Source of the DNA: a virus
Virus record (IMG/VR): IMGVR_UViG_3300024520_000050
Location: 64,001-128,000 of that record
DNA: 64,000 nucleotides
Direction: 5' to 3' (one strand)
Each line of letters opens with the position of its first letter. Within the stretch, counting starts at the first letter, position 1. Positions 18,198-47,693 of the stretch are shown here, one piece after another. Both the position numbers and the translations under genes were made by a program. A model generated the notes under the pieces. The model ran no database searches and was not told where the DNA came from. It saw nothing but the letters and a program-made list of their open reading frames with translations.

Positions 18198-18209
18198 TAA
18201 CTAACTAAA

Positions 18210-25238: not shown

Positions 25239-25568
25239 TTAAAGTGCTTCGTAAGCTTTAATCATCGAATCAAATATTCGATATTGGCTTCCGTTTATCT
25301 CTTTAATTATATAAGATGTTTTGTGACAATTGTAACCATCTTCCCCATACCATTCTTCCTCACCTGTCAGTTCTTCTAACCATTCTCTAGATTCCATAGT
25401 TTCGGTTTCTTCATTCCAATTATCCCAAAACTTTTCAAATAATTCAACACCTTTTTTCTCATCATTCCATTTAGCATCATTACTAACGTATTTTATAACT
25501 CCTCCATAATCTTGTGAACCATGAGGATCATAATAATATGTATATTCTGTTATCAAATAGTACTTCAT
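25239..25568 (-). CDS. Small acidic hypothetical protein
   Basis: 109-aa ORF, 4-nt overlap with the upstream gene; about 22% D+E, rich in W and Y. Confidence 0.6.
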   Translation of the reverse strand: MKYYLITEYTYYYDPHGSQDYGGVIKYVSNDAKWNDEKKGVELFEKFWDNWNEETETMESREWLEELTGEEEWYGEDGYNCHKTSYIIKEINGSQYRIFDSMIKAYEAL

Positions 25569-26419
25569 ATCAATTCAGATAATTGCATTGCCCGAATCAT
25601 TCGTGTTATTCCAATTCCTCCCCCACATCTAGGAAAGAAATTATGTTTTAAGAATTCTTCTAATTCAGCTTCAACTCGTTCTTTACCAAATAAATCAAAT
25701 AGACGTTGACAATAAGCACCATCTTCAATACTATAGAATGTATCACGCATCTCTTTTGGATTACAACTTCTTTCAGCTGAACCAATAGTTTCCTGCCCAT
25801 GTAGAATAACATCTACCTTCTCAGATATTGAAGCATCTTCTTCATTGCGTTTCATATTCCAAAAAGGACTTGTATATTCTGGAAAGTCTGTAATGAATAC
25901 AACATCTTTATCTTTGCACATTTCTTCTTCATGACCATGAGTAAGCTCTTCAACTCCATACATATCAGCAAAGAATTTATAAGTTTGTTTATTTTTTGGT
26001 TGTTGTAAAAATCCTAAATAATCAAGTAATTCTTTTTCAAGTTTTACTAGCTCGTCAACTCCACCAGGTAATTCAAATTCAAACATTGGAAAAATCATAC
26101 AATGACGTCCAGCTACGGGATCCGGTTCATTTCTATATGAAGTAGATACACAAAAGTAGCCAGGTACATCAGGTTTAGTTAATAATTCATGTTCTAACCA
26201 CATTTGTCCAGTTTGCGGCAAAGGCCATACTTCTCCCAAATATTCATAGGTTGCAATTGTAGTTGGATCTTCACATGCAGCCATTATACTTAGTCTATTT
26301 TGAGTATGTACTTCTAAGAATCCTTTATCTAAAAAGAATTGTCTCATACTATTAACGCACTCTGTAAATTGCTCTGGATCTATGATTGGACATAGTTCAT
26401 TTCTTTCTTCTTTTAACAT
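25565..26419 (-). CDS. Class II aaRS (Asp/Asn/Lys-type) catalytic-core-only protein; asparagine synthetase A-like or EpmA-like
   Basis: Motif 1 FLEVHT, PQTGQMWLE, motif 2 YRNEP...RH..FPMFEFE, ETIGSAER, motif 3 GGGIGITR; 284 aa with no N-terminal anticodon-binding domain. Confidence 0.8.
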   Translation of the reverse strand: MLKEERNELCPIIDPEQFTECVNSMRQFFLDKGFLEVHTQNRLSIMAACEDPTTIATYEYLGEVWPLPQTGQMWLEHELLTKPDVPGYFCVSTSYRNEPDPVAGRHCMIFPMFEFELPGGVDELVKLEKELLDYLGFLQQPKNKQTYKFFADMYGVEELTHGHEEEMCKDKDVVFITDFPEYTSPFWNMKRNEEDASISEKVDVILHGQETIGSAERSCNPKEMRDTFYSIEDGAYCQRLFDLFGKERVEAELEEFLKHNFFPRCGGGIGITRMIRAMQLSELI

Positions 26420-26499: not shown

Positions 26500-26991
26500 T
26501 TATTCTTCATCATATTCTTCAAATGAATTCCAAGCATGACAATATCCTGACCAGTTATCAACTCCTGAATTCTCCAAACATTCTAACCAATCTAAACGTT
26601 TTTTCATGGAATCATATTCGTCTTTGGGAATAGAAATCATCTCTTTCTTTTGTTCTGGAGCAGGGTTATAATACATCTCTACATCATCCCAACCACATAC
26701 TAAATTATGTCTATCATATCCTTTATAGTATTCTTTAGTTTCTGGATTAGTTATAGTAATATAATTATCTACATTTTGACTATCGTTATCATAATAACCA
26801 TCTGTTTCAAATTCTATAATCCATTCTTCTAATCCTTTCAACATTGATATATCAAACTCCTTAAAGTCTTCATCTTCTGGATCCCATGCGTTATAATCCT
26901 CAAATAATTCTTTAATAATTATAGGTTCGCATTGGGCTAAATAATTAGATATGGTATACTGATCTAATATAAATTTATCTTTTAATTTCAT
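26500..26991 (-). CDS. Acidic phage hypothetical protein
   Basis: 163 aa, about 25% D+E; C-terminal LECLENSGVDNWSGY motif of a kind common in small phage proteins. Confidence 0.65.
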   Translation of the reverse strand: MKLKDKFILDQYTISNYLAQCEPIIIKELFEDYNAWDPEDEDFKEFDISMLKGLEEWIIEFETDGYYDNDSQNVDNYITITNPETKEYYKGYDRHNLVCGWDDVEMYYNPAPEQKKEMISIPKDEYDSMKKRLDWLECLENSGVDNWSGYCHAWNSFEEYDEE

Positions 26992-28019: not shown

Positions 28020-31000
28020 TTATAAATTACACGGATCTTTCTTAGCTTTTTCTTCTCTAGCTATCCGTATATCATTTGCGTTTGTAGTCATTTTCGACTT
28101 AGTACTTATTAAACTGTGTTGTTCAGTTACTGGTTTAATAGAAGATGATAAACCTGTTGATAACATTATTGTTTCATTAAAAGATTTCGCTTTTTTCAAC
28201 TTGGCTTCTATCTCTTTAGCTTTAGCATTAGAAAGTACCATCTTACTCTGTTGTTTATGTTCCATTATATTCTCTGGTTTTTCAGGAGTAAATAATGGCA
28301 GATTTTTTGGAATAAATTTACCATAACCTTCATTAATTAATGATTCTATCAGATTCCAATCTAACATTTGAGATAGATCTTGTGATTGAGTATCTAATTT
28401 GAAATATTCAGCATTACCTGTTCCCGAATGAGTATCTCTTTCAGCTCTAACTTTTTCAAGTTGTTTCTTAAGTTTAATATTCTTAGGAAGATTATCTCTA
28501 ATCTTAAGTAAATTCACAAGAACAAAATCAGGTGATGATTTTTGTACTTTATTTGTTCCAGTTGCAGAATTTCTAGCAAACGCCCACAAACTTCTAGCAT
28601 TTTTACCATGAAGTTTTAAAGCATCTATGATAGCATGTTTAATATTACTACCATTTATTTGCTTTAAATTAGATAAATCAGAAGTATTCAATGTAAGCAC
28701 TTGGGTTCCTGTAGTTGATTTATTCTTATCGGCAACTGTAATAAATACATCACTACCAATAGCTTCATTTAACACAGTTACTAATTCTTTAAATACTTTA
28801 GTATTTCCTTTAGGACCAAATAAATAACCGTCTTTACTCATATTAGTAAATCTAACATCAAATAATGACTGATCACCTCTTAATTTTCTTTCCATTACTG
28901 ATATTTTACCATACTTTTCTGTATTGAAATTAAAATGTAATCCTTCAGGTCTATTGATCATAATATAATCATTAACCTTTTTAGGGCTTACAAATCCATG
29001 GAAGTTATTACTGACAGTTAAGTCTTTTTCTAAAGCTTTTAATTTATCTTCAGTAATAGTACCTTCATCAATAACAATATTATCCTTTTCTGTAATTACT
29101 AAATCTAATTCTTTCATTTGTAAAGCTATTTCACCAGCATTATCACCATACTTTCTATGTAGTTCATTTTTCATAAAGTTCTTGTAATGATTAGATTTAT
29201 TTTGATTTAAACTTAAATCATAACCCATAAAGAATCTACCATGTCCAACAAACTCACCTACTGCAGGATACATTTTAAGATACACAGCTCTTCCTCCTCT
29301 GCTACCATCATACGGTTTATTAGAAAAACGCATGATTTCATTTCCTTTTCCATCAATTGCTGGAATACCAACAATCCCTACTTTATACATAGTTTGTGTT
29401 TTACTATCAAACTTGTTCTGAAGTAAGAAAGGAAATTTAGCTTTTGGTGAACTAGCAAGTACACTATATCCATAAGTATCATTACCAACTGTTTTAACAT
29501 TTGGTACATATTGTGTATTACGTGATAAGAATTGATACTCAAATTGATTTAATAATTTAACTTGATCATCTTTAGATAATACATCAAAGTCTTCAAATGC
29601 TCTCTTAAGTATAACGCCCATGTCTTCATTAGGTATTAAATTACTAAAGGTAATAGGTGAATTATGATGTATACCTGATTGATTAATAGCAAGTTTAATT
29701 AAATCATTGTATAAATTAGTACCATTCTTCTCGTCAAACTCTTTGATTATGATAAACTCATTTCTCAATTTATTTGCTGTAGTAACATCTATTTTACGAC
29801 TTCTACTTTGAAGAGTAGAAAATTGAGCTAATGATTTTAACTCTGTATTTTTAATAAATTCTTTGTATGATTTATGTGCTTTAAGTGAACTAACTCCTAA
29901 TAACTCTTGAATTACTGCATTGTTTTTCAATTCTTTCAATGCAAGTACACTAGAGTTTTTAGCAACTTTACTAAATTTAGTTTTACTACTTAATAATTCA
30001 AACATAATTTCAGCAAGAGGAGCAGGATCACCATCTTTATTAACATAAGTATTATCTTTATGTTGTATAAATAGTTGATTAAATACAACCTCTGGATTGA
30101 ATTCATTAATTATCTTCTTACCGTTCTCATCAATTCCACGAATATCAGCCATAACAATAGCAGTAGATAGATCGTTATCAATAGTACTTCTCAATTTAGA
30201 TTTCTGATCAGAACTTACCGTTCCAGCACCTTCAATCGTATTGAACAGTTTACGTTTAGCATATGCTATCTTTTCGTTTTGTTCAAAGTAGTATAATTCT
30301 TTATACATCATAACAGCTTTCTCTATTATTTTAGTAGGTTCTGATACGATTGATTCATTCTTAATCTTATCTAGATTAGTAAATCTACCTTTGAAGTCAA
30401 CTAATTCAGCTTCTTCTAAGAAAATCTTGTTATCATCATTATTCTTCTGTGATCCTTTTGTATCAGGACTTGTAGTACGAATCATCATTTGGAAATCTTT
30501 AGATTGTCTTTGATATTCTAAAAACATATCTAAGATATCTATCTGTAATCCTTCATATATATTTTGGTTATCATTAAGGAAACTTAAAGTTTTCATAACA
30601 ACTCCTTCACGCTTAGCAGCATCAAATAAAATATATTCACCTAATCTTTCTGTACTAAACATTTTGTTTTCTTCGAAACGTTTAATTACATTCCAACGCG
30701 ATTTAATTAATTTATCAGCATTACGATCTACAGCATCTACAGCGGCTTTAGCATTAGGTAAATCATCTAATTTAAATGTTCTAAATAATTCATCAATTTC
30801 AGTATCTGCTTTTGCATTAATAGTAGAAATTAAAGCTTTGTATTCAATTGGAACACCTTGAGTAAATTGTTCAAAGTCACTCATTGCTCTTTCAACAACA
30901 TGTTTCTTAGAAACTTCACCACCAAATATCTTATTGAACATAGATTCATTAGCTTTCTGATATCTCAAGTACGTTTTAATAATAGGTTGAGAAATAAATC

Positions 31001-34000
31001 TTGTCACCCATTGTACTTCAGCTCCACCACGAAGTAAATAGAATACCATATTGGCAGTTCTGTTCGTAGCATTAATATCAAAAATATAAGGATCTGCTGC
31101 AATATCCACATAAGCATTCAAGAATGCAGACAATGTTTCAGATATCCATTCACCTTCAGAGTCTCTTTTAGCACTAAAATGTGCTTTACCCTTAAGTTTA
31201 GTATGAGGGAATATCCAACGTGGATCGGCAACATTATATTGTAATCCGGCTGCCATCGCTAATTGATGATGTGTAATATGAACTGCTGTTTGACCTACAC
31301 CTGCTTTACCAGATAAGAAGTAAACAAATTTATCAATATTAACCGATGGATCAACAATGTCAGCTAAAGCTTTATTAGCTCTTTCATCATTGTCTTTTTT
31401 ACCCCATTCCTTTATTTTTGTAAAGTAAATAGGAGCCATCGCTAAAGCAAATTTTAAATTACCTTCATCTGTTAAATTAACTTGTTGTAAATCAACAGGT
31501 TTACCACTGTGTGTGACAGTACCATTTGCATCAACTGCAAGATCACTTCCATCAATGAATTTACCATCCTTAGTAATAATACTTTCAATCACTTCATTAC
31601 GACCTTCAATTAATACTTTAGTAAGTTCATTTCGTCTTTCTTCACTTAAGAACATTTGATCAGTACTTCCTTCTGTTCCACCATACAAATTAGTAACACC
31701 ATTCTTGCTGTTCAATCCTCTAATATCAACTGCTTGATTCTTAGTAATAGTATCATCAACAGGTGCCATTAATTGTCTATAATTGTACGGTAATGACATT
31801 ATATCATTATGTAGATTAACCATCTGATTCTGTAGTCCTTCTTTTCCATTCTGTTCGACAATTGGTAATTTAGAAAAATCATCTTCATTTAAAGCTTGAC
31901 TTTTCTCTTGCTTATAAGTTCTAATAGAACCTTTAATTGCATCTCTGTAATCTTCTCTAACTTCATCCTTCTCTTTATTGATAGCTTCAAATGTTTTACC
32001 TTTGCTTTCTTTAATTGCAGGTAACGCATCTTGCTCCCAACTCCAAGTTTCACTTACTTTCTCATCAATCCATGTAGCAAAATCTTTACCCATAGTATAT
32101 TTGATAATATCATCATAAGTTTCAATTAAAAATTCTAATTTTTCGATTGTTTTTAAAAGTGGAATTGCTACTCCAGCTTCAATCTCTCCTTTAGGATCTT
32201 CAATCAATACACGAATATCTTCAGTAGTATCTTCTGTTACTTGACCTTTGAGTTCATTTAAATATGTAACAGCTAATCCTTTGAATTGAATCGTTTTCTC
32301 AATGAAATCACCCGTATACTCACTATTGGCTTTCTTAAATGTTAATATAAGATTTGTATTTAATGTATTGAATGCTTCAAGTGATGCATCAGCAAATGGT
32401 TTCAAATCCTCTTTAGACTTAGCTTTAAATCCTTTTTCTAATCCAGCTTTATGCTCTTTAAAGTCAGCTTTAATAGTTTTAAAGTTACTTGTATTTACAG
32501 CTTTAGCTTGTTCATCATACGCATCTAAATCTTCAGCACGTTCCTTAGACATATCATCTAAGAAAGATTGAATTTCATCATCTTTAACTAAAGCGATATT
32601 ATCTAAGTATGCATCATGACGTTCACGTATTGTACTATTAGTATCATCCATAAACGTATAAGCTTCAGGAGCAGACCAGAAAGTACCTAAATATCTAGGC
32701 TTCTTATAATCCATTAGATATAGATTTAACTTATCAATATCATAATCCGAACCAGCCTTAGCAACCATTTCAGTTGGTACAACAATTGTATCACCTGCAG
32801 TTGTTGGTAAGAATCTCTGTACACGCATGAACTCATTTGAGTTTAATGCCTGATTAGGAATACGGAAACCAATAACAGTAATTAATGATTTAACTTTAGT
32901 AGCTAACTCATCTAATTCTTCATTAGAACCCTCTAATTCGATACGATCTAACAAAGGATGTAATTCCTCAGCTAAATATTTATTAAGTCCATCTAATCCA
33001 CCTTTACCATTAATTCCAAATTGCTCATCAGCCCAACCAATTAAATCAGCAGGTAATGCTAACATGCAATGTGCAGGTAATGTTATATTATTTGCACCTC
33101 TTTCATAATGACGTAAATCAGGACTAGAAAAATGCATTCCATCTTTACCTTCACGTTTAAACTCAGTACCGTCACTCTTCTCTATTTTTTCAAATAAAGT
33201 AGATGCAACTTGTGGAGAACCTTCACCTTTACGTTTCTCTTTAATAACACGAGAGTTAATAATAGCAAATAATACATTCTCAACTTTCTCTTTAGCTAAT
33301 ACGTGTTCAATATAAGTAGAATCCTCTTCCAAAGAAGCAATTGAATTCTTTACATTATCAGACATATTTCTATCCTTAGCCATTTCTAAAGCTACATTAA
33401 CTAAACTTGTTCTATTACCTATATGATATCCAACAATGTTTCCATTTTCAGTACCGTCGTGAGTAATAGGACTTAATTCAAGTTCCTTAATTAACTTATC
33501 AAAAGGACGTTTGTATAATTCAACTTGTATATCCTGATATTGTTTATATAATCCGTACATTGGAGAAGCTTCATACTGCTGTTCGGGGGTTAAATTATCC
33601 CAATTAGCTTTTACTTCTTCCCAATTATCACGAGCTGCATCTTCAATTTGTTCAATAGGTAATCCTCGATATGCATTCCCTTCTTTCAGTAATTGTATTT
33701 GATTCTCCATGTAATCAACTGGTACACCAGCTTCAATCATATTAGAAAGAATTAACTTTCTAAACTGAGTCGATGCTGTAATCTTACCTTTCATACTTGG
33801 AGATTGATCTAACTGTACACCAAAGTATTGGTATGATGTAGTTTGTGTAAGTACTTCGTCTACATTTAATGCAAATTCACCATTTTCATTATATAATGTA
33901 TTACTCTTTCCATCTTCTTTCAACTTTCTACCAAACTTATTAGCAGTAGTAAACTGAGCTAAAGTAACTCCTTTCTGTTGCATTATGTCATTTAACTTAG

Positions 34001-37000: not shown

Positions 37001-40000
37001 TTGCATCATCAATAGCATCTTCAGAGAATTTAAATCCTAAATTATTTATTTGATTAGTATGCATACGAACAAGTTCATTGAATCTCTGAGCTGTATCTTT
37101 ATCTAAATTACCTTTTGTATTAGTAAGAAAGAAATTATTATACAAATTATTAATAGCTTCTATTTGTGCATCAATATCTGCTTTCTTAGTTTTAGTTCCC
37201 CTTAAATAACGACGGATCATATCTTGTACAACTAAATTCCCTCCAGTTCTATTAGCATATTGCCAGCGTCCTTTTGCAGGTCTACCTTTGCGTTCCCATG
37301 AACCAATTAAATCATGCATTCCTTTTACATACTTATGCATCTTTGTTCTTATACTATTATATATCTCATCGGTCACGAGTTTATTTGCAAAGAATGCATC
37401 TGCATCTTCACTGTTACGGAATAAATCGAATAAAAAATGTGTCATACCTCCCATGATAGATGATAACTCAACTTGTGAGATATCAATACCATTAAAGTGG
37501 TAAGTTGACGTTAACTGCTTATTAACTTTTGACATTTGTTGTTGTTTAGACGGTTTAAAATTATTTTCAATCGTATCAACTAGCATGATCAATGTATCTT
37601 TGTAGCCATCTAATGATGAGTCTATATCGGATTCACTTTGATCAAGTAAATTTTTAATAAATGTATTCTGTCCTTGTTTTAATTCTGTAGGTGTAAGTTG
37701 ACTTACTTCTTTGCCATTGAACATTACATCTATGTGAGTTTCAAAAAGAGGTTCATTTTGTAACTCATCCATAAATTTCATATACTCTGTAGGTGCAAGT
37801 ATTCCAGCTAATAACTGAGAATACTCCTCTTTATTCATATGTGCTTGAGCATCATCTTTACTAATATTTAATTTATCAGTAATAACATAAGTACCCATTA
37901 AACTGTATTGATCATCTTCATCAAATCCTTCTTCAAATTTAGCTTTCAAATCATCAGAACTCATAGATAACATTTCTTTGTATTCAGCATCACTTATTTC
38001 ACCAGATAATTGATCACTAATACTATCAGTGAATTCATTTGGCTCTGGCCACCAACTTAGAGATTCTAATTTATCCCATAGTTGATCAGTTAATGGTTGA
38101 TTAGGATCGATTTTAACAGCTTTCTTTTCTACTTTGATAGTAGGAGCTACCTCTCCTGGTTTAACTTCATCAGAAGGCGTTATTATAGGTTTAGTAACTA
38201 CTGTAGTAGGTTTACTTGAATATATAACATCTCCTTTAATATCTTGAAGTATACCAACTTTATTCTCACGGAAATGAGCAGCTCCAACCTCAAGTACTTC
38301 TTCAAGTACATTACCTTTAATCAAATCAATATTTAAACTCTTAAGTATATTACTTACGATATCAATAAATTCTTGGAATATATTTTTAATACCACGTTTA
38401 GTTTTCATACCTAATTCTTTAACAGAAACACTGTTTAAGAATGTTTGCCAATCAGTACTATTCATAGTATTAGCAAAGAATTCATTCATTGAGTTCTTTT
38501 CTGTTAAACCTAATGTTGTCATTAACTTATCTACATCTCCACCCGAAGTTTGCAATGCATCTGTAAATTGTCCTTGTGTAGTTGAAGTTGAATTAAACAT
38601 CCAATACGCTAATGAACTAATTGGTTTACCATTAATTTCAGATGTATGATTTAATATAGCATTATCTTTACCTGTTGTAGCTAACCATGTAACTAGTTTA
38701 TTTCTAATATCAGTTAAACGTGCTTTATGACCTTGGAGATCTTTATTACCATCTACATCAATTCTATGAATTAATTCATGTGCAATAATAGGGGCTAATT
38801 TATCAGCAGTTACATTACTACGAATTAAAGCACCTAAAGCAAGTTCAATAGCAGTATCTGCATCATCTCCTGTCTTAGAATTAGCAAGTTTAGCATTACG
38901 CCATAAATGCGGAGTATATTTAATTTTTAATCCAATATCTGATAGTTTTAATACAGACATAATTAACTTTACATGGGTTGGATCTGTAATACTAGCATTT
39001 GGATTTACAGCTTCTCCTGGAATTTGAATTAAACTAGCTATATTAGTATTCTCCGCTGGAGTAAAAGTAAGATTCACATTCGGAGAACCACCTACACTAT
39101 CAGATATTAATGAGAATACATTAGCGTCTTTACTATTTGAGTTTCTTCCAACACTTAAAGTTGTTCCAAACTCTTTAGCATTTCCACTTGTTAAATATGG
39201 TAAATACTTAGTTAAAAACTCAGTATTCATTTTTAAAGTATTGATTGTTTTTTCAATACTTTCTCTATTATCGTCAGTTATTTGAGACTGCATATGAGGA
39301 AATACTATAGTCATATAATCTTGTATACTCTTAATAGTACCACCAAACGTAGCACCTCTACTTTCATTATGTAATGTACTTCCTGAAATAATTTCTGTTT
39401 CGGTACTAATATCAGGGAAGTATTTTTTAGCACTATCTATTTGATCTTCTTCTATTAATGTAAGTTCTCCTTTTTTATTAACTAAGTAAAAGTCAGTATA
39501 TAATATGTCTGCTATTGTCATTTCTTGCATGACTATCATACCTTCTTTTGCTGCGACAGCAGTTATTTGAGTATGCCACTGTAATGGTTTTTTACTTACT
39601 TCTCCTCCTGAAACTGCAGTATCTTCACGATAGTTATTTGCAAATACTATTTTATCACCTGGTTTTAATACAGGAATTTCAGTATTAACTATTTTAGCTA
39701 ATGTAGTTGGTTTTTTTGACGCAACAATAACAGGTTTGACAACATCAAATTTTAAATCACTAATATTATTAGATGTAAGAAGTTCTCCATTAAATGCTAA
39801 GTCACCATCTATTGCAGTAAGTTCACCTTTAATATTACCTCTCATTACTTTCTGTCCAAGTTGAAGAGTTTTACCATTTACCTTTAATACATCAGCTGTA
39901 ATAACTCCACCATTTTCATCTTGTAATGAAGGTTTAAGTGACATGTATTTACCAACTACAGAAGTTTTAACACCTATCTTACTTAATTCATCTGGATTAA

Positions 40001-43000
40001 GTACATTAGATTTTAAGATCTGTTTCATGTATTCATTGTAACTATCGTATTTTCTAACTACAATTTCTTTAGTTGTAGCATCAATTTCTGGATGATAATA
40101 TTCATTCTTAGCAACATCTTCTTTAACTAATTGAAAATGAACGTGTTTACGTTTTTCTTTTAACATTTCAATCAATCTAGGTACTCCCCAATTACCATGT
40201 GTATCTGAGATTTTTTGCCCAGCAAGATATTCTACTAATGAACTTATTGGGAAAAAAGGTGCATTTGGAACTCTTCCGTCAGCTTTATCTTTTATATATT
40301 GTTTATCAGCAAAATGGATCTTACCACTTTTGATCCATATCATAAATGGTGTAACTGGATTGTCTTTACTTGGTCCACCCCAATTTAATACTTTATTCAA
40401 CAGACCAATATTTGATAGATCTTTACCATGAGTAACTAAATTCATAGATATTTTCTCAGTAGTCCCAACTACATTGAACTCACCTGTTTTATTAAACTCA
40501 CCTTTTCCTTTTGGAACTATATGTGTGATTAAACGCAATACAGTTTCAATATCACTTGATTTTTTTACACTGCTTTTAGGATCAACATAAGTCAATTTAC
40601 CAGATTGAGTAGGTGTTAAACTACCATCTTTACTCTTAATATAAGGTACACCAGATACAACTGTACGATCAGAACCATTTACTTGAATTATAGCAGTACC
40701 TTTAGAAGTTTCACTTCTTACTACTCCATCAAATGTATCTTCACTAAATAGATGTTCTACTGATCTAAATTCTTTACCATCATCAGGTTTACGTTTAAGC
40801 ATATCACCTTCCGATACATTACCAATTTCAGTAAATGCCTTCTTGCCAGAATTTATATGATCAACTATTAGTTTGCGATAATCTTGCATATCCTGCATGA
40901 TTTGCTCTCTAACAGCCTTTATTAAATCAACAACAGGTTCAGCTGCTTTATCTGTACTATTCGTTGTATGATATACTTTATCACCAAATATAACAGTGTC
41001 TCCGAATTGACCTAATTTAGTATAACCTTCGTAATTACTTTCTTGTAATTTATTTACAATCATATTCTCACCCATTACTAAACTGAATCCAGATTTAGTA
41101 GAATCATCTTTTCTGATATTAGGTATTGTACTAAATACTAAATTATAATCAACTGCTTTATCTCCTTCAAGCCCATACTTTAAGTCACCGTCTTTATTCA
41201 TATAAACACGCTCGCCTTTATTATTAACAACTACAGCATAAATACCAGGATTATCAATATCAGCTTGTAGTGCTTCTTTATCACCTACATAACTCTTATT
41301 ATGTAATTCTTTCTCTCCTGTTTTTGGATCAATTTGAACTATTGGTAACTTATTCATAGAATCATTCTCATCACGAACTATTCTAGGATCATTTTCTGTA
41401 ACACCAGGTTTACTTAATTGAACATATTCAACTTTGAAATTATTCTTAAGATCTTTCTTATTATCAATATATTTATTCATGAATTCCATATGATGTAAGT
41501 CATGCGGATTCTGTGTCATCAATGGCAAACCATCTGCGGTATATTTTCTAACATTGTTAGTTTTATCATAAGTAATATGGCGAGGTACTGTAGAATAAGG
41601 TGTTATTTTACCTCTAGTCCAACTAGATAATTCTTCAACTTTCTTACCAACATCTCCTTCAATCATGTTGCCATCTAGACCCATTTCTTCATCTAACTTC
41701 TTATATGCAGTTTGTTCTTTGGTATCAGTAGTTTTTTCAGCTTCATCCAATGTAGTACTTAATTCTGGATTATCAAAATTAAATATAGCAGTCACAATCT
41801 CTTTAGAATTCTCTAAACTTTTTTGCGCATCTTCTAGTCTACGTAAATCATTTTCTTGTGCTTCACGAATATCTAAAAGTACACCTAATCGTGAATCTTC
41901 TAATTCTATTATATCAACTTCAGTTAAAGTATCTAAGTCATTTAGATCACTTTCCCACATCTTAGCAACTAAATCTGAATATTGTTCATAACCAGTAAAT
42001 TGCTCAATTATTTTTTTACGTTTTTCAAAAGTTTCAGGAGACATTCCTGGATCTTCAGTTTTTAATGCAGCTATTAATTCCTTCTGTAATTTAATAGACT
42101 TATCTAATTTAGCTAACTCTAATACATTGGTTTCATAATGATTAGTGAATTTTGCTATTTCAGCTTCTATATCTTTAAGTAATTTATTATTACTATTATT
42201 ATCAATACTATCACTAATATAACTGATCATATCATTCATAGTACTTAACTCTGATTCTTGCTGGAACTCATTAGAATTTTCAGCTAGTGCATGTTTATAC
42301 TCATTCAACTCATGTCTTTCAGTTTCTAATTTAGTTATCTCTTCAGCTAAATCATTTAACTTGGTAAATAAGTTATGATGAGTATTCTGGTGATCTGACA
42401 TAATTTTATCAGCATTATCAGATAAAGTAGTTAAATTATTATAATGATCTACTTGATTACCTTTAAGCTTCTTATCTATTCTACTAAGTAAACGAATAGT
42501 ACCATTATGTGTATCTTTTAATTCTTTAACTTTGAATTTAACACTTTGCATTTTTTGCTCAGCATCGCCTAGGAATGCTTTAATTACTTCCTTATCAGCT
42601 TTATCTTTTATAATAGAATCCTTAGTAAATTGAATTGCACTATTGATTTGTTCAAGAGTCATATCACTAGCATAATCCATCTTAGTTAAGACCTTATCAT
42701 TTTGGTCATGTAACTTATTGAATGCGGCCAACTCATCAATCATTATAGATAAATTAATACCCATATCTTGTGATATTGCACCACTTTCGGCCATGTTCTC
42801 GATTATATCAAGTATTGCATCGGCATCAATTTTACCGTCTACATACAGGATGTCAGCTATTTTATCGAGGTATTCTTGAAGTGCGTCGTTATCATTCTTG
42901 AATTTATATTTTCCTATTTGTTCAAGTTTATCCATAATGGCATCACGCAGTTCAGACATATTACTTATATTCCTCTGATATTGCTTACTATTTAATAATC

Positions 43001-46000
43001 CAAGAAGTTGTTTCTGTAACTTCTTATTCTCCTTAATATTAGTGTCAACTCTATTTAAATTCTCTTGTTGGGTAGCAATAACATCTTCCCACTTTTCTAT
43101 ATCATTATATAACTGTTGAATAGGTAATCTAAGTTCATTCAACTTAGTATCTACAAAACCAATATCTTCAGTTACATTATCAAGTAATTGTGCATAAGCT
43201 TCATACTTTACTATTTGATTCTCCCAACTATTAATACTTCTATTAATACTACTTCTTAATTTTCTGGCTTTGTTATACTCTTTATTAAGTTTAGTTATTT
43301 GACCTTTGTGATAACCTAATGATCTTTTACTACCTTCACCTTTATTAACTATAGCTTCATGCTTAATTATCTCATCTTTAATCTCTTCAAGTCTTACATC
43401 TAATTTATGACTTTTCCAAGCTTGTTCTTCTACTTGATCACCTAATTTATAAAGTTTATCTTGTAATGCTTTAGTTTCACTATCAACAATTTCTTTTTGA
43501 TCAGATGAAAATTGAGCTATAATAGATTCCATTTGTACAACTAATGGATCTGCAAAATCTGTAGATGCATTAGTCAACTCTTCACCATTTTTAAGTGCTT
43601 CAGCTTGTGCCTGTAAATATGTACGTAATTCTACTAAATCATTAAATGTATCAATGATATCTTTATTACCTTCAATTGCAGCATTACGTTCTTCTATACT
43701 ACCATTAAGTAGTTTAGTTTTCTCTTTATTTAGACTCTTAAGTCTAATCATTTTAGCAATATATGCTTTCATGTAAGTATCTCTAGCTTTAGATACTTCA
43801 TTATCTTGTGGTGTACTAGTCTTAATATTCTTCTGTAAATTATCATAACTTAATACAACAGAAGGTTGAATAGGTGTTTTAGTTGGTTCAATTTGATTAC
43901 CTGTATCAATTGATATTTTCCAACTAGCTTCTCTAAAATTAGCTAATTTTGCATTATCTTTACCTTCAATTTTAGCTACAAATTTACCTTTATATTTAGC
44001 TGCTTTACCTACAAGAACATAACCTTTACCTTTTTCTTTCCTAGTATATATATTTGTACCTTTTTGTAATTCCCATTTATGAGTAATAGGTACCATTCTA
44101 CCTCCTGGTATCTTCTGATAATAAGAACCAATTGCCATTCGTTCAATTATACCATCATCGCCCTTATCAATTTCATATGTGAGATTACGTTTGACTATAA
44201 TACTATTATCTTTCTTGTTAGTTGTAATATTATACAAGCTCATATCTTGAGGTGGTACAATATTTTTAAGTGAATTAGTTAATACAGTTAATTCACGTTG
44301 TTTTAATTCTTTCTTTTTAGTTAATTTCTCACGTTCTTTCTTGAGTGAATTTAATTTCTTAATTAAATCACGTCTACGTGTTGCTTGTTTACTAAGTAAT
44401 TTAATAGGTGTTTTAATAGAATTATCAATAGGAAGACCTAATATAGTATTAACTTTATTTAATTCTTCTATAGCCTTATTAAATGCTTTTACATCTAAAC
44501 CTTTATCAAATGAATCTTCATCTTCATACTGTTTAAGAGCAGTTGCTCTATCTTCTTTCTTTATAGTACCTAACGCATTAGTATATTTAGTTTCATCTTT
44601 ATCTAACTCATCTAATTGTTTATCAACATTTTTTATAACTTCATTGATAGGATTCATTAAAGTTTCTTGTGAAGCAGTAAAATTCTTTTTATACTGCTTG
44701 AATGCTTCTTGGCTACCCGGCTTTAATTGAGACTTGTAATAATATGAATGAATAGCCATTGATGTAAATTCTTCTTCATGTAAAGCTTCAAATTTATATT
44801 CTCCATTTACTTCATCATATACTATACGACCAGGAACATTATGGAGTCCCCAATGTATTCCACCACCTTCTTCTTGTTTTTCAAGTAAATTATTTATTTG
44901 AAACTGGAACCATCTTCGTTTAAATATTTCAAGTGCTTTATTATATTCAATTTGTCTTAACTTATCTTCACCTTCTTGACTTGCTAATTCATCAAATATA
45001 CGATCTAATTCTTTAGATTTTTCTACTGCTTTAAGCTTCTTATTATATATTTCAGTTTGCTCCTTAGATTTAAGAGGTTTAATTCCTAATGCTTCAATGC
45101 GTTTATCATATGGTACAGCAAGAGCAGCTTCACGATGTTTAACTTCCTTAGCTGCCTTATCAATTTCTTTAATCTTACTTTCTACTTCATCATGGTGTTT
45201 TTTTGCTCCTTCAGTAGTAGCCGTATTTGCTTTACTAGATTTAGTAAGTTCCAGCATTTCTGCTTGTAAACGAGCATGATCTTCTTTTAATGCCTTAAGT
45301 CTTCGATCATAAAGAAGTATTTTATTCTTTTCTTTTTCAATCTTAAATGCTTCATCATACTTAGCTTTAGTAGATACTCCATCTTCATCTATTTCAGTTA
45401 AATCTATATCTTCTGATTGAGCTTGTGTAGCTATTTCTGCATCATGTACTTTCTTAGATTTTTCTTCTAAGTTTTTAATATCTTCAGTCAAAATATCATA
45501 ACTCATTCTATTTTTAAATAAAGCACGAGCAACATTACCAGAACGTTTACTATTGTATTCCATCCAACGATCGTAGTATTCATCTACTTTAGTCATGGCT
45601 TCATCAGCACGTTCTTTATAATTTTCATCATATCCTGCTTCCATAGCTTGTTCAGGAGTAAGATTTTTCATTTCATTTAATTGAGCCATTAAATGATCTT
45701 TAGTATTACTTTCGAATGATTCCATTGCAGTACGAGCTAATGAGAATTCTAATAATTCATCCTGCTTTTTACGAAGTTCTTGTTCGTTCATATTATCGAA
45801 CTGCTCAGAAAGTTCTTTCTTTTTTGTATCTAAAGCTTTTTTACCTGCTTCAGTATCAAGATCAATTCCTCCTGAATTAACCACTTCTAATGCAGCCCAG
45901 CCTGCAACAATACTTTCTTTTTGTTCTTTATTAAGAGTTTCTTTACCATTGTCAATAACATCATTAATATCAGATATAGTTCTACCTATTTGGGCTTGAT

Positions 46001-47693
46001 ATTTTGCTGTACCTAATACACGTGCATTCTTTTCTATATTAGACTTGAATGCTTTTAATCTATCGTCTACTTCTTTAAATTCATTTGCTTCAATTTCCTT
46101 TTTAGAATAAACACTTTTTGTCATTACAGGAACAGGATTTCCTTTACTATCAAGTTTAACTTTCTGACGTGCTTCTGCAGGTTGTTTTACTTTTTCTCCT
46201 TTCTCATCTAAAGTTGTAATATTAGATTCAATCATATCTTGAACCATTTCACCATCTTCATTCTCAACCATTACATCTTCTAATTCATATACACCATCTC
46301 CTGCATAATGTTTAACAGTTCCATCAGGATAATACTCCGTACTTTTTTGTTTCTCTTGTACAGCCTTTCCAAAACGTTTAGTTTTACCACCAAATGATTT
46401 TTCCGAACCCAATCTATGAAATAGATCAGTTGCTCCAGTTTGAGCCATACCACCTGCTAATCCTAGTACAGATGCTTCTCTTATATCTTTCCATGTTGCA
46501 TCACCATATACATTACCTGTTAATAAAGGTAATCCACCTTCTATTATTCCTCTAGATTTTCTACCGCTTTCTAATGCTAATGCAGCTTCTCCTTCAGCTT
46601 GCTTTTGTGCAATTAATTCTACATTTTCTTCAGCAACTTCTTGTAATCCTTCTTTTAATCCTGAACCAAGTGTCTTATCTTTTAATGATGGTAAGAATTT
46701 TTCAGGTTTAAATCCTTTTAAATTCTTAGTGCCAGCAAGAAATCTATTAGCAGATGTCATATTCAATATAATATTAGCTCTACTTGCATTTACAGTTGTT
46801 GATGCTGCTTGTGCAGCCACTTGCTTAGCATATTCTTCTCCATAACCCATTCCTTTAGCTTTATCATAAGTACTACCATATACTTCGGTGGCACTCATAA
46901 TTGCAGCAGATTGAGTTAATGCTGTTGATGATACTAAATTACGGCCAAAGTCAGCTGCTTTCATTTCCATTCCAACTTGTGTACCTGTTCGACCCATACC
47001 ACTCTTAGTTAATCCAGTTGCAGTTTCAACACCTCTACGTGTTAAATCGTCAAGTTTATCAATTTTACGTAAACTCTTCAGCCATTTAATACCTTGCATT
47101 CCTTTTCCAATTGTACTTGCAACTCCACCTCCTTGTGCAACAAAAGATAATGCACTAGATATTAATGATGAACCATTTTCCATCCACCATGAAGCCATTC
47201 CAGGACCTAACATGCCTGCTCCTGCTTTCTGATGTATCTTATATTGATCATTAGTTTCTGCTTTCTTCTCAGCTGCCCACTTAACTACATCAGTTAATAC
47301 TCCACTATTAGGATCATAATAACCTGGTAAATCAACAATAGCAGCTGCACCACCAATAGTGTCAAAAATAGTATTCCAAAAAATTCTATTTCCTGCATTT
47401 TTAGTTTGTTCCCATCCACCTTGTTTCTCCCACAAGTTGTCTTCATTATATATTCCACCTGGAGTATATACAGCCCCTAGTCGATCAGCTTCTTCTTTAG
47501 CATCCCAATCATAAGTTGTTTGTGCAGATTGATCATATAGATTCTTATCTTGATCATATTGGTCACGATAGTAATCAAAATCATTTGTTGCTTTTTGTCT
47601 TTTTTTAACATCCTTTACTAAGGTGTTTTGATATTGTTGTTGAGCACTAGAATTATATAAATTTTCTAAATATGCTTCTTCTTCTGGATTCAT
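28020..47693 (-). CDS. Giant virion-packaged crAss-like RNA polymerase, polyprotein/fusion (6557 aa)
   Basis: Catalytic GSDYDIDK (DYDID at 32733-32747, aa 4983-4987), GFRIPNQ, EADAQAY, YKHS, STQFRK, AYVDIAADP; HELIH zincin motif at 38766-38780; long coiled-coil N-terminal half. Confidence 0.9.
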   Translation of the reverse strand: MNPEEEAYLENLYNSSAQQQYQNTLVKDVKKRQKATNDFDYYRDQYDQDKNLYDQSAQTTYDWDAKEEADRLGAVYTPGGIYNEDNLWEKQGGWEQTKNAGNRIFWNTIFDTIGGAAAIVDLPGYYDPNSGVLTDVVKWAAEKKAETNDQYKIHQKAGAGMLGPGMASWWMENGSSLISSALSFVAQGGGVASTIGKGMQGIKWLKSLRKIDKLDDLTRRGVETATGLTKSGMGRTGTQVGMEMKAADFGRNLVSSTALTQSAAIMSATEVYGSTYDKAKGMGYGEEYAKQVAAQAASTTVNASRANIILNMTSANRFLAGTKNLKGFKPEKFLPSLKDKTLGSGLKEGLQEVAEENVELIAQKQAEGEAALALESGRKSRGIIEGGLPLLTGNVYGDATWKDIREASVLGLAGGMAQTGATDLFHRLGSEKSFGGKTKRFGKAVQEKQKSTEYYPDGTVKHYAGDGVYELEDVMVENEDGEMVQDMIESNITTLDEKGEKVKQPAEARQKVKLDSKGNPVPVMTKSVYSKKEIEANEFKEVDDRLKAFKSNIEKNARVLGTAKYQAQIGRTISDINDVIDNGKETLNKEQKESIVAGWAALEVVNSGGIDLDTEAGKKALDTKKKELSEQFDNMNEQELRKKQDELLEFSLARTAMESFESNTKDHLMAQLNEMKNLTPEQAMEAGYDENYKERADEAMTKVDEYYDRWMEYNSKRSGNVARALFKNRMSYDILTEDIKNLEEKSKKVHDAEIATQAQSEDIDLTEIDEDGVSTKAKYDEAFKIEKEKNKILLYDRRLKALKEDHARLQAEMLELTKSSKANTATTEGAKKHHDEVESKIKEIDKAAKEVKHREAALAVPYDKRIEALGIKPLKSKEQTEIYNKKLKAVEKSKELDRIFDELASQEGEDKLRQIEYNKALEIFKRRWFQFQINNLLEKQEEGGGIHWGLHNVPGRIVYDEVNGEYKFEALHEEEFTSMAIHSYYYKSQLKPGSQEAFKQYKKNFTASQETLMNPINEVIKNVDKQLDELDKDETKYTNALGTIKKEDRATALKQYEDEDSFDKGLDVKAFNKAIEELNKVNTILGLPIDNSIKTPIKLLSKQATRRRDLIKKLNSLKKEREKLTKKKELKQRELTVLTNSLKNIVPPQDMSLYNITTNKKDNSIIVKRNLTYEIDKGDDGIIERMAIGSYYQKIPGGRMVPITHKWELQKGTNIYTRKEKGKGYVLVGKAAKYKGKFVAKIEGKDNAKLANFREASWKISIDTGNQIEPTKTPIQPSVVLSYDNLQKNIKTSTPQDNEVSKARDTYMKAYIAKMIRLKSLNKEKTKLLNGSIEERNAAIEGNKDIIDTFNDLVELRTYLQAQAEALKNGEELTNASTDFADPLVVQMESIIAQFSSDQKEIVDSETKALQDKLYKLGDQVEEQAWKSHKLDVRLEEIKDEIIKHEAIVNKGEGSKRSLGYHKGQITKLNKEYNKARKLRSSINRSINSWENQIVKYEAYAQLLDNVTEDIGFVDTKLNELRLPIQQLYNDIEKWEDVIATQQENLNRVDTNIKENKKLQKQLLGLLNSKQYQRNISNMSELRDAIMDKLEQIGKYKFKNDNDALQEYLDKIADILYVDGKIDADAILDIIENMAESGAISQDMGINLSIMIDELAAFNKLHDQNDKVLTKMDYASDMTLEQINSAIQFTKDSIIKDKADKEVIKAFLGDAEQKMQSVKFKVKELKDTHNGTIRLLSRIDKKLKGNQVDHYNNLTTLSDNADKIMSDHQNTHHNLFTKLNDLAEEITKLETERHELNEYKHALAENSNEFQQESELSTMNDMISYISDSIDNNSNNKLLKDIEAEIAKFTNHYETNVLELAKLDKSIKLQKELIAALKTEDPGMSPETFEKRKKIIEQFTGYEQYSDLVAKMWESDLNDLDTLTEVDIIELEDSRLGVLLDIREAQENDLRRLEDAQKSLENSKEIVTAIFNFDNPELSTTLDEAEKTTDTKEQTAYKKLDEEMGLDGNMIEGDVGKKVEELSSWTRGKITPYSTVPRHITYDKTNNVRKYTADGLPLMTQNPHDLHHMEFMNKYIDNKKDLKNNFKVEYVQLSKPGVTENDPRIVRDENDSMNKLPIVQIDPKTGEKELHNKSYVGDKEALQADIDNPGIYAVVVNNKGERVYMNKDGDLKYGLEGDKAVDYNLVFSTIPNIRKDDSTKSGFSLVMGENMIVNKLQESNYEGYTKLGQFGDTVIFGDKVYHTTNSTDKAAEPVVDLIKAVREQIMQDMQDYRKLIVDHINSGKKAFTEIGNVSEGDMLKRKPDDGKEFRSVEHLFSEDTFDGVVRSETSKGTAIIQVNGSDRTVVSGVPYIKSKDGSLTPTQSGKLTYVDPKSSVKKSSDIETVLRLITHIVPKGKGEFNKTGEFNVVGTTEKISMNLVTHGKDLSNIGLLNKVLNWGGPSKDNPVTPFMIWIKSGKIHFADKQYIKDKADGRVPNAPFFPISSLVEYLAGQKISDTHGNWGVPRLIEMLKEKRKHVHFQLVKEDVAKNEYYHPEIDATTKEIVVRKYDSYNEYMKQILKSNVLNPDELSKIGVKTSVVGKYMSLKPSLQDENGGVITADVLKVNGKTLQLGQKVMRGNIKGELTAIDGDLAFNGELLTSNNISDLKFDVVKPVIVASKKPTTLAKIVNTEIPVLKPGDKIVFANNYREDTAVSGGEVSKKPLQWHTQITAVAAKEGMIVMQEMTIADILYTDFYLVNKKGELTLIEEDQIDSAKKYFPDISTETEIISGSTLHNESRGATFGGTIKSIQDYMTIVFPHMQSQITDDNRESIEKTINTLKMNTEFLTKYLPYLTSGNAKEFGTTLSVGRNSNSKDANVFSLISDSVGGSPNVNLTFTPAENTNIASLIQIPGEAVNPNASITDPTHVKLIMSVLKLSDIGLKIKYTPHLWRNAKLANSKTGDDADTAIELALGALIRSNVTADKLAPIIAHELIHRIDVDGNKDLQGHKARLTDIRNKLVTWLATTGKDNAILNHTSEINGKPISSLAYWMFNSTSTTQGQFTDALQTSGGDVDKLMTTLGLTEKNSMNEFFANTMNSTDWQTFLNSVSVKELGMKTKRGIKNIFQEFIDIVSNILKSLNIDLIKGNVLEEVLEVGAAHFRENKVGILQDIKGDVIYSSKPTTVVTKPIITPSDEVKPGEVAPTIKVEKKAVKIDPNQPLTDQLWDKLESLSWWPEPNEFTDSISDQLSGEISDAEYKEMLSMSSDDLKAKFEEGFDEDDQYSLMGTYVITDKLNISKDDAQAHMNKEEYSQLLAGILAPTEYMKFMDELQNEPLFETHIDVMFNGKEVSQLTPTELKQGQNTFIKNLLDQSESDIDSSLDGYKDTLIMLVDTIENNFKPSKQQQMSKVNKQLTSTYHFNGIDISQVELSSIMGGMTHFLFDLFRNSEDADAFFANKLVTDEIYNSIRTKMHKYVKGMHDLIGSWERKGRPAKGRWQYANRTGGNLVVQDMIRRYLRGTKTKKADIDAQIEAINNLYNNFFLTNTKGNLDKDTAQRFNELVRMHTNQINNLGFKFSEDAIDDAMMDDEIHAVKDKAFFDNSTERNQKDSVPPAIKLLIASLSNQIKNQQKSKNNKEVYENVTSYLGLPSPNEFNDIYNLLVKKLSNTPGDRDKIMSALTEVMQAEGQYTTGSTLRSLVGKDSILRKIMNADGSANTDITLDELNILNQFIQTFSKFSPKFLLARMDREGKIKYIDANRYKTSDKILSGWEESFNDALVDKSVVTEEDKTIDVKALDPVVAKAFIGLVSDAENIYTGAHNAPNENKAKEKAFKRLRTALATVGIEIKKVNSISDINNLIMAKNGQSSIFKLLLDKDSIAQALEKNADDPFYSLFTDRTIDATMKSLAEYTADVTNQVVDNQHMSVDGKTIYAATLNHFLSIATNRINSAVADPNQDLRTEVPHLFNVFTKNSVVRNWLEEGNTTIEVGMFNGLIAQGIRDGIVNKELDSPDKWSMMISSTMQGYYTFFRAADRGTENSFVFRDSKTKAVKKLYTEAGPGTRDNAKKAYYGYLLDEINAMVQYELGVGQDLQFYGKDSRNSEKGSDFRFFSDSKISEDMKRSIKAKVKAGKSLADIKAHLDLHINDFNDGLDKFFYAKAKKVKETIREEGLLGLIPDSFKTKKQWNKVTNKPSEVFKDNASHMVFTGIPSNLLGEYIDKQSTQYFTDKDGNVDIDALNEAALTEMLYDFNMIQTGAYIEQSKLFVGDPAMYKNSDAFFKRMSMMNSTKKISVMDKVVDEVLNETNGVVLKDENGTINFESLNITELQALINNEYVLSKALDKTRRDALQALIGADKNIDDITIQPLLGFNPDYILSGERYDGTFKSMILEEVLTMSYLAKDQVADIEIKNGVITYLDKDGNSLDASKDNIEKDAAGNITNYPQVSKLRKAFSESFLEDGLSKDKIQDKVASYLKPYLKMEEADAQAYTTMAGYKEILLKAGDWKPKHQAAYNKIIQGKELSDKELFLFRVLKTQYTGPMALNESSNQSSGSKVTEVNEDTNLFVPTGYKHSVFPLIPQLIKDTNLSKLNDIMQQKGVTLAQFTTANKFGRKLKEDGKSNTLYNENGEFALNVDEVLTQTTSYQYFGVQLDQSPSMKGKITASTQFRKLILSNMIEAGVPVDYMENQIQLLKEGNAYRGLPIEQIEDAARDNWEEVKANWDNLTPEQQYEASPMYGLYKQYQDIQVELYKRPFDKLIKELELSPITHDGTENGNIVGYHIGNRTSLVNVALEMAKDRNMSDNVKNSIASLEEDSTYIEHVLAKEKVENVLFAIINSRVIKEKRKGEGSPQVASTLFEKIEKSDGTEFKREGKDGMHFSSPDLRHYERGANNITLPAHCMLALPADLIGWADEQFGINGKGGLDGLNKYLAEELHPLLDRIELEGSNEELDELATKVKSLITVIGFRIPNQALNSNEFMRVQRFLPTTAGDTIVVPTEMVAKAGSDYDIDKLNLYLMDYKKPRYLGTFWSAPEAYTFMDDTNSTIRERHDAYLDNIALVKDDEIQSFLDDMSKERAEDLDAYDEQAKAVNTSNFKTIKADFKEHKAGLEKGFKAKSKEDLKPFADASLEAFNTLNTNLILTFKKANSEYTGDFIEKTIQFKGLAVTYLNELKGQVTEDTTEDIRVLIEDPKGEIEAGVAIPLLKTIEKLEFLIETYDDIIKYTMGKDFATWIDEKVSETWSWEQDALPAIKESKGKTFEAINKEKDEVREDYRDAIKGSIRTYKQEKSQALNEDDFSKLPIVEQNGKEGLQNQMVNLHNDIMSLPYNYRQLMAPVDDTITKNQAVDIRGLNSKNGVTNLYGGTEGSTDQMFLSEERRNELTKVLIEGRNEVIESIITKDGKFIDGSDLAVDANGTVTHSGKPVDLQQVNLTDEGNLKFALAMAPIYFTKIKEWGKKDNDERANKALADIVDPSVNIDKFVYFLSGKAGVGQTAVHITHHQLAMAAGLQYNVADPRWIFPHTKLKGKAHFSAKRDSEGEWISETLSAFLNAYVDIAADPYIFDINATNRTANMVFYLLRGGAEVQWVTRFISQPIIKTYLRYQKANESMFNKIFGGEVSKKHVVERAMSDFEQFTQGVPIEYKALISTINAKADTEIDELFRTFKLDDLPNAKAAVDAVDRNADKLIKSRWNVIKRFEENKMFSTERLGEYILFDAAKREGVVMKTLSFLNDNQNIYEGLQIDILDMFLEYQRQSKDFQMMIRTTSPDTKGSQKNNDDNKIFLEEAELVDFKGRFTNLDKIKNESIVSEPTKIIEKAVMMYKELYYFEQNEKIAYAKRKLFNTIEGAGTVSSDQKSKLRSTIDNDLSTAIVMADIRGIDENGKKIINEFNPEVVFNQLFIQHKDNTYVNKDGDPAPLAEIMFELLSSKTKFSKVAKNSSVLALKELKNNAVIQELLGVSSLKAHKSYKEFIKNTELKSLAQFSTLQSRSRKIDVTTANKLRNEFIIIKEFDEKNGTNLYNDLIKLAINQSGIHHNSPITFSNLIPNEDMGVILKRAFEDFDVLSKDDQVKLLNQFEYQFLSRNTQYVPNVKTVGNDTYGYSVLASSPKAKFPFLLQNKFDSKTQTMYKVGIVGIPAIDGKGNEIMRFSNKPYDGSRGGRAVYLKMYPAVGEFVGHGRFFMGYDLSLNQNKSNHYKNFMKNELHRKYGDNAGEIALQMKELDLVITEKDNIVIDEGTITEDKLKALEKDLTVSNNFHGFVSPKKVNDYIMINRPEGLHFNFNTEKYGKISVMERKLRGDQSLFDVRFTNMSKDGYLFGPKGNTKVFKELVTVLNEAIGSDVFITVADKNKSTTGTQVLTLNTSDLSNLKQINGSNIKHAIIDALKLHGKNARSLWAFARNSATGTNKVQKSSPDFVLVNLLKIRDNLPKNIKLKKQLEKVRAERDTHSGTGNAEYFKLDTQSQDLSQMLDWNLIESLINEGYGKFIPKNLPLFTPEKPENIMEHKQQSKMVLSNAKAKEIEAKLKKAKSFNETIMLSTGLSSSIKPVTEQHSLISTKSKMTTNANDIRIAREEKAKKDPCNL

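Follow-up and report, generated by a model that had tools for sequence, protein, structure and literature searches.

A 6557-codon reading frame in a crAss-like phage genome

We analyzed a stretch of viral DNA of 64,000 nucleotides (the window), corresponding to bases 64001-128000 of the IMG/VR record IMGVR_UViG_3300024520_000050. The parent record is 178,400 bp long and is rated complete by CheckV. On the minus strand of the window, an open reading frame (ORF) at positions 28020-47693 encodes a protein of 6557 amino acids (aa), hereafter the giant. Most probably, this ORF specifies the early-gene RNA polymerase (RNAP) of a 178-kb crAss-like phage, fused in frame to another of the three cargo proteins that make up the Crassvirales transcription block. 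In phage phi14:2 the members of this trio are gp67, gp66 (the polymerase), and gp65, and in crAss001 they are gp47, gp50, and gp49. The phage is assigned to the crAss-like group by a muzzle protein matching PF25731 and by polymerase matches confined to that group. It is distant from every GenBank record, since megablast of the window against GenBank phages returned no nucleotide match and tblastn returned no protein match beyond the polymerase core.

The frame opens with an ATG and contains zero internal stops over 19,671 nt, as judged from the ORF list and the translation, and a script scan found no N letters in the window. At the GC content of the window (28-34%, with ~31% at the giant ORF and a consistent strand skew), chance cannot account for a run of 6557 stop-free codons. 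The start codon is backed by the conserved N-termini of relatives, which read MNPEE.. in three metagenomic proteins (P0002-P0004), and the C-terminal tail is likewise conserved. Continuity of the frame is further supported by colinear, near-full-length alignments to independent metagenomic proteins of 5740-6647 aa from the sources lgn, ena, and jgi; those colinear over the full length measure 5748-6541 aa. A preliminary description of this DNA had reported one continuous frame of 6557 aa, about three times the size of phi14:2 gp66, with the catalytic DYDID at residues 4983-4987. The stop-free translation and the colinear relatives bear out the first of these points, the ratio to the 2180 aa of gp66 is 3.0, and a motif script placed DYDID at the same residues.

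Table 1. Coordinates of the giant ORF, its regions, and associated genes in the window
Feature	Residues	Position	Strand	Basis or remark
Whole ORF, gp67-type + virion RNAP fusion (assigned by homology)	6557 aa	28020..47693	minus	739.7 kDa calculated
N-module, gp67/gp47 type	aa 1-1030 (core ~88-450)	44604..47693	minus	HMM, AF2, KD scan
Charged Pro/Gly-poor helical region, coiled-coil-like	aa 1031-2000	41694..44603	minus	composition
Clade-specific middle region	aa 2001-2880	39054..41693	minus	conserved only in P0002-P0007, P0010
Zincin-like region	aa 2881-3190	38124..39053	minus	invariant H, E, H and downstream Glu
HELIH codons, sole HExxH of the giant	aa 2972-2976	38766-38780	minus	motif script
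P/T/K-rich linker and acidic variable segment	aa ~3150-3400	37494..38243	minus	probable junction, Cys-free
Two-barrel virion RNAP module (assigned by homology)	aa 3401-6200	29094..37493	minus	phmmer to 6VR4, tblastn, HSP map
DYDID codons	aa 4983-4987	32733-32747	minus	motif script
C-terminal region	aa 6201-6540	28074..29093	minus	unalignable to any relative recovered
C-terminal tail ..EEKAKKDPCNL	aa 6541-6557	28023..28073	minus	Cys6555 codon 28029-28031
gp65/gp49-type protein, starts MKCK	2323 aa	18210..25181	plus	Cys3 codon 18216-18218; ART-PolyVal
Muzzle protein	1793 aa	4617-9998		PF25731 crAss_MUZ, E 2e-40

To judge from homology, residues ~3400-6200 are a two-barrel virion RNAP of the phi14:2 gp66/crAss001 gp50 type. 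A phmmer comparison of residues 3401-5600 with the gp66 structure (PDB 6VR4) gave an E value of 8.4e-34 in five colinear stretches, which together align gp66 positions 864-1680 to positions ~4215-5584 of the giant. The catalytic motifs fall opposite each other in this alignment (SDYDIDKLN in the giant, SDFDIDKM in 6VR4 chain A), and gp50 of crAss001 matched the giant in three BLAST blocks. In tblastn searches against GenBank phages, matches came solely from RNAP genes of crAss-like phages, at <60% identity, and residues 1-2100, 2101-4200, and 5601-6557 found no match. Searching the whole giant in three pieces against Pfam and PHROGs returned nothing beyond chance-level coiled-coil matches. Module borders were drawn from a map of high-scoring segment pairs (HSPs) against 90 long relatives, and this map also revealed an insertion at residues ~5000-5440 of the polymerase module relative to many of them.

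The other half of the fusion, residues 1 to ~3200, is by the same kind of evidence the counterpart of gp67 in phi14:2 and gp47 in crAss001. The N-module at its start is conserved across all large relatives in the HSP map. A hidden Markov model (HMM) of this module, built from 12 giants, matched phi14:2 gp67 with an E value of 9e-7, colinearly at the N-terminus of gp67 (segments 65-215, 434-532, and 631-732). Phage phi14:2 encodes gp67 (1797 aa) directly upstream of gp66, and gp67 in turn matches crAss001 gp47 with an E value of 2e-8. An exhaustive HMMER search with residues 1-1030 recovered 173 homologs, in which the module was always N-terminal, at residues ~60-400. Their sizes were ~1200-2900 aa for the stand-alone gp67 type and 3000-7000 aa for the fused forms. 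With an N-module of this type in frame with a polymerase, the giant reads as a gp67-type plus RNAP fusion. The preliminary description had proposed that the polymerase was joined to a cargo protein, and the homology of the N-module to gp67/gp47 and of the polymerase to gp66 agrees with that proposal. The junction lies probably at residues ~3150-3400, as placed by alignment: stand-alone RNAPs carry 200-440 residues ahead of the first block that aligns to residues 3369-3590 of the giant.

A Kyte-Doolittle (KD) scan of the N-module found two Gly/Ala-rich, moderately hydrophobic helices (residues 104-122 and 177-195), with peaks at residues 104 and 177. Gly/Ala helices in the N-terminus had also been noted before. 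An AlphaFold2 (AF2) model of residues 1-520 was an all-helical bundle with a predicted local distance difference test (pLDDT) score of 63.8. Foldseek comparison of this model with the PDB gave zero matches at E<=0.001, its top rows being unrelated helical membrane proteins, and the N-terminal 520 aa had no Pfam match at E<=10. In the ESM Atlas, the N-module fell into viral hypothetical clusters only, one of which carries LPD22 on 12% of its members. Residues ~600-2000 are charged and poor in Pro and Gly and vary among relatives. Part of this stretch (residues 1031-2000; KERDQ 34-41%, P+G 3-8%) gave a weak match to the Pfam coiled-coil family APG6_N and could be aligned in the closest relatives only. 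The long coiled coil of the preliminary description thus stands as a charged, Pro/Gly-poor stretch, with the coiled coil itself called from composition. Pfam, PHROG, and the ESM Atlas offered no lead on the middle region (residues 2001-2880).

Between this middle region and the polymerase, the giant has a single HExxH motif. Its H, E, and H (H323, E324, and H327 of the aligned region) are invariant in 7 sequences, as is a Glu 98 residues downstream in the context ..NEFFAN.., a putative ligand. The region is conserved only in the nearest relatives. It had no match in Pfam (E<=10) or PHROG and chance matches only in a PDB sequence search, and a search with it found no relative among IMG/VR loci. 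The AF2 model of residues 2650-3400 was unreliable (pLDDT 38); its best VIA-align row, the PhiM1 ejectosome protein 8vb2_A, is not a peptidase and scored below the trustable level (Z 6.6). The zincin domain reported earlier is thus a putative one, called from the invariant HExxH and downstream Glu; a family or fold match was not obtained. The single HExxH sits in different modules in different phages, namely at residue 245 in phi14:2 gp65, at residue 2157 of 2341 in crAss001 gp47, and at residue 2972 in the giant. Iterated local HMMs of the zincin-like region did not reach phi14:2 gp65 or crAss001 gp47, so homology between these HExxH domains is unproven.

HSPs to relatives all end by residue ~6207, and the C-terminal 360 aa had no Pfam match at E<=10. 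In relatives, precomputed Pfam annotation places add-on domains downstream of the polymerase core: NADAR, 2OG-Fe(II) oxygenase, ART-PolyVal, SF1 helicase, His-phosphatase, and FtsK-gamma. Their carriers (P0009, P0011, P0029, P0053, P0058, P0062-P0066, P0233-P0235, and others) each still end in a Cys-bearing tail. The third member of the trio is encoded separately: the 2323-aa protein matched crAss001 gp49 by BLAST (E 4e-10) and contains a Pfam ART-PolyVal domain (E 1.5e-8). The locus is laid out as in crAss001: the muzzle gene, the cargo genes, and one member of the trio share a strand and are convergent with the RNAP gene on the opposite strand. No gene for thioredoxin turned up in the genome of the phage.

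The preliminary description had implied that a polymerase of this size is rare. This implication is not supported, and any novelty of size fails, because relatives are routinely as large. We found at least 16 metagenomic relatives of 5740-7062 aa (P0002-P0015, P0095, and P0097; two of them are 6656 and 6841 aa), several on contigs of 121-167 kb. Three of them (P0002-P0004) are colinear with the giant over nearly its whole length, at 39-50% identity. In RefSeq genomes of Suoliviridae, RNAP ORFs measure 4272, 4400, and 5443 aa, and the gene after each encodes a protein of 1561-1945 aa. Double fusions of the gp67-type plus RNAP kind are common. Published accounts agree: RNAP genes of crAss-like phages reach ~6000 aa, a hallmark of the group (PMC10136315), and orthologs of gp65, gp66, and gp67 form in some phages one huge polyprotein that is likely cleaved (bioRxiv 10.1101/2020.03.07.982082). 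The giant ORF is therefore a large further example of an already described crAss-like RNAP polyprotein, and its type of fusion is known.

Distribution of cysteines in the transcription-block proteins

The giant has two Cys residues only, at positions 4876 and 6555, and none near its N-terminus. In the 2323-aa gp65-type protein, Cys3 is the only Cys. The same arrangement recurs in cultured phages that encode the trio separately. In phi14:2, gp67 ends in its only Cys, gp66 has two (Cys3 and Cys2179 of 2180), and gp65 has Cys3 alone. In crAss001, a single Cys occurs in gp47 (position 2339 of 2341) and in gp49 (Cys5), and gp50 has three: Cys5, one internal residue, and Cys2404 (of 2412). The terminal pattern of cr128_1, cr108_1, cr114_1, cr6_1, and cr7_1 is as in these two phages.

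We counted a Cys as C-terminal when it lay within the last 10 residues. Among 91 giants, Cys made up 0.042% of residues, and yet 86 of the 91 had a C-terminal Cys, against a chance expectation of ~0.4% of proteins. A further tally covered 236 related proteins with lengths of 1200 aa or more. Of the 202 lacking a gp65-type module at the C-terminus, 187 had a C-terminal Cys, and of the 34 with such a module, 0 had one (Fisher p 1e-29, a value that overstates independence because the tallied sequences are phylogenetically related). At the other end, an N-terminal Cys was found in 1 of 115 proteins starting with the N-module versus 48 of 121 others. All 16 gp65-type homologs have a Cys at position 3-5. 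Most stand-alone RNAPs have an N-terminal Cys, and many have exactly two Cys, one per end. Gp65-type proteins and some RNAPs, gp66 included, share an N-terminal motif of ~30 aa that bears this Cys.

The fused forms follow suit. Fusions of RNAP with a gp65-type module (P0020 and P0243) retain the N-terminal Cys alone, and triple fusions of 4573-5537 aa have zero terminal Cys, most of them being Cys-free throughout. From these comparisons, Cys appears to be kept only at termini that would abut a neighboring module when the trio is ordered gp67-type, RNAP, gp65-type, and to be lost where modules fuse. In these sequences, Cys is essentially absent from the two outer ends of the trio, namely the gp67-type N-terminus and the gp65-type C-terminus. 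In two proteins, P0137 (2321 aa) and P0203 (2197 aa), the N-module is fused straight to a gp65/gp49-type module without an RNAP block, and both have zero Cys. These proteins may come from RNAP-less epsilon-type lineages.

The internal Cys4876 of the giant (about nt 33066-33068) lies in the context ..LPAHCMLALP.., ~107 residues ahead of DYDID. It is kept in P0002, P0003, P0006, P0010, and P0011 and is replaced by Ala in P0004; the single internal Cys of crAss001 gp50 is at position 1334. The remaining cargo ORFs of the window contain little Cys and lack a terminal one: the presumed cargo proteins encoded at 10019-18197 (plus) and 47721-51926 (minus), of 1177, 423, 1081, and 1401 aa, have 1, 0, 0, and 0 Cys, respectively. 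The muzzle protein, whose gene adjoins the cargo ORFs, has 18 Cys in 1793 aa. Cargo stored in the capsid appears to be generally purged of Cys.

Possible head-to-tail coupling of the trio

Where Cys is confined to the termini that abut each other, the simplest reading is a pairwise, head-to-tail coupling. We give slightly more credence than doubt to the idea that the terminal Cys would couple the trio by disulfides into one chain, an idea drawn from the comparison of protein ends. A disulfide fits because other Cys have been purged, because disulfides occur in crAss001 virions (PMC10172136), and because N-to-C ejection has been proposed. That proposal comes from the structural atlas of crAss001, which envisages partial unfolding of the cargo and an order of exit set by cargo-cargo interactions (PMC10172136). 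The proteins of the phi14:2 trio are packaged in the virion, and gp66 transcribes early genes (10.1101/2020.03.07.982082).

By analogy with these characterized relatives, the giant would be packed inside the capsid. It would exit via the tail in the N-to-C direction and partly unfolded, either preceding the DNA or accompanying it. It could then transcribe early genes without need of the host RNAP. Under the coupling hypothesis, the three modules would always travel as one linear chain, genetically fused or not. Separate polypeptides would be joined from the C-terminal Cys of one to the Cys at position 3-5 of the next, most simply by a disulfide that would form in the extracellular virion and be reduced in the host cytoplasm. 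In the phage studied here, the first joint would be the peptide bond of the fusion and the second would link Cys6555 of the giant to Cys3 of the 2323-aa protein. The HExxH domain lies beside the junction and may have a role in processing the polymerase or activating it. A broader proposal, which we regard as evenly balanced, holds that the trio is injected as one covalent train, that reversible Cys links were swapped for peptide bonds in evolution, and that other Cys were purged from these proteins of 1,300-7,000 aa against mispairing.

Several considerations weigh against this interpretation. The Cys pattern is purely comparative, and the shared ancestry of the tallied sequences lowers the force of the test. 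Fifteen of the 202 proteins expected to have a C-terminal Cys lack it, although some of these exceptions are probably truncated ORFs. Because phages assemble in a reducing cytoplasm, disulfide formation would have to wait until after release. The position of the junction is approximate (residues ~3150-3400), and the zincin assignment comes without a family or fold match in Pfam, PHROG, the PDB, or AF2 models.

Alternatively, the ORF could encode a polyprotein precursor whose cleavage, after assembly or ejection, releases a free RNAP and a gp67-like protein; its own HExxH domain might make the cut, and the fusion would be a mere translational convenience. We find this possible but lean against it. 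Drobysheva et al. described such fusions as "likely cleaved" and suggested that a zincin-like domain may activate the RNAP (10.1101/2020.03.07.982082). The position of the motif is in keeping with such a role, as the HExxH always lies within a few hundred residues of an RNAP junction. In the giant, its distance to the presumed junction is ~200-450 aa; in crAss001, the motif precedes the end of gp47 by 185 aa, and in phi14:2 it follows the start of gp65 by 245 aa. However, Pfam, the PDB search, and the AF2 model of the HExxH region gave no protease fold or family match. Cleavage would in any case be compatible with a coupled chain rather than opposed to it.

Less likely still, and in our view improbable, is that the terminal Cys are under selection but not bonded to each other, serving instead to bind a third partner (the portal, the capsid interior, a metal ion, a lipid, or a modification) or as a packaging or ejection signal. 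Fusion would bury any terminus-bound signal and so render it dispensable, which is consistent with the loss of Cys in fused proteins. The pattern, however, is strictly complementary, given that the outer ends of the trio bear Cys in 1 of 115 and 0 of 34 cases. Moreover, the fusions of N-module and gp65-type module without RNAP are Cys-free, and the near-total purge of Cys (0.04%) fits the avoidance of mispaired disulfides, both of which favor mutual coupling. An intein, trans-splicing, or a nucleotide-level signal behind the terminal Cys was considered and rejected, because the Cys is followed by only 0-10 residues and because partner genes lie on opposite strands, kilobases apart, in crAss001 and in this window.

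The weakest alternative, that the single frame is an artifact of assembly or annotation and really comprises two or more genes, is hardly credible: the source is a metagenomic IMG/VR contig, interrupted RNAP genes are known in some crAss lineages (PMC7886860), and the RNAP of cr108_1 is split inside its catalytic motif, but the giant's frame runs without a stop at ~31% GC, has near-full-length colinear homologs from three sources, and is conserved at both ends. In cr108_1 (MT774385, L005), the RNAP at 12549-24139 is annotated as two pieces that break at ...AKAGSD / LYDIDKMY, with a gap of ~290 nt. This break is probably an intron or another type of interruption, such as has been described in crAss-like phages.

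The giant is of value for comparison. Fusions and splits of the three modules that arose in nature act as a genetic experiment, which shows which protein ends belong together, with one Cys marking every joint that is open. If these residues do serve as couplers, they would address how a transcription machinery of ~0.6-0.75 MDa is packaged and threaded through the tail in order, and they would explain why fused and unfused forms are interchangeable. A covalent train, if real, would be a mechanism for the ordered ejection of multi-megadalton cargo that is undescribed in the literature searched. Nor did we find the terminal-cysteine rule described there; the crAss001 structural atlas (PMC10172136) and the gp66 preprint (10.1101/2020.03.07.982082) make no mention of the cysteines of these proteins. 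The coupling hypothesis is testable in the cultured phages phi14:2 and crAss001.

Related systems and neighboring genes

Phage phi14:2 has the same three modules in the same order and an identical terminal-Cys pattern. In contrast to the single ORF and opposite-strand gp65-type gene described here, its trio (1797, 2180, and 1421 aa) is encoded by three genes on one strand. Its HExxH motif is in gp65, whereas that of the giant is upstream of the RNAP, and sequence identity does not exceed 33-47% and is confined to short blocks. The resemblance to crAss001 extends to the convergent layout, the same Cys pattern, and a domain order in which gp47 has its HExxH near the C-terminus. The gp47, gp50, and gp49 cargo proteins of crAss001 were found by virion mass spectrometry. 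They are three separate proteins, however, with gp47 on the muzzle strand and gp49 after the RNAP, whereas in the window it is the gp65-type gene that lies on the muzzle strand.

Three Suoliviridae, cr7_1 (5443 aa), cr6_1 (4400 aa), and cr114_1 (4272 aa; RefSeq NC_055895/94/97), have the RNAP motif and a Cys tail, and the next protein (1561-1945 aa) has a Cys at position 3-5. They appear to share the double-fusion architecture of the giant. They differ in being 1100-2300 aa shorter and in having the gp65-type gene directly downstream on the same strand. Under table-11 translation they contain in-frame stops, and their genomes appear recoded; identity to the window is about 28-37%, in the RNAP core only. 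The metagenomic relatives P0002-P0015, P0095, and P0097 have the same N-module, RNAP, and C-terminal Cys tail. Many of them carry a recognizable add-on domain before that tail, whereas residues 6201-6540 of the giant are matchless.

Two phages outside this group offer functional analogs. The virion RNAPs of coliphage N4 (gp50, ~3500 aa) and Thermus phage P23-45 (5002 aa) are also giant polymerases that are injected with the DNA and transcribe early genes. The N4 enzyme is a T7-like single-subunit polymerase and is not known to be homologous to the giant. The P23-45 enzyme is also a two-barrel polymerase fused to a virion structural or ejection protein, the difference being that its fusion partner is the tape-measure protein.

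Two small minus-strand ORFs lie between the giant and the gp65-type gene. The one just downstream of the giant (26500-26991, 163 aa) has a C-terminal RecBCD-inhibitor domain of the T7 gp5.9 type (PF25708, E 4e-17). The other (25565-26419, 284 aa) matches the class II aminoacyl-tRNA synthetase catalytic core (PF00152 tRNA-synt_2, E 1.4e-18) and is without an anticodon-binding domain.

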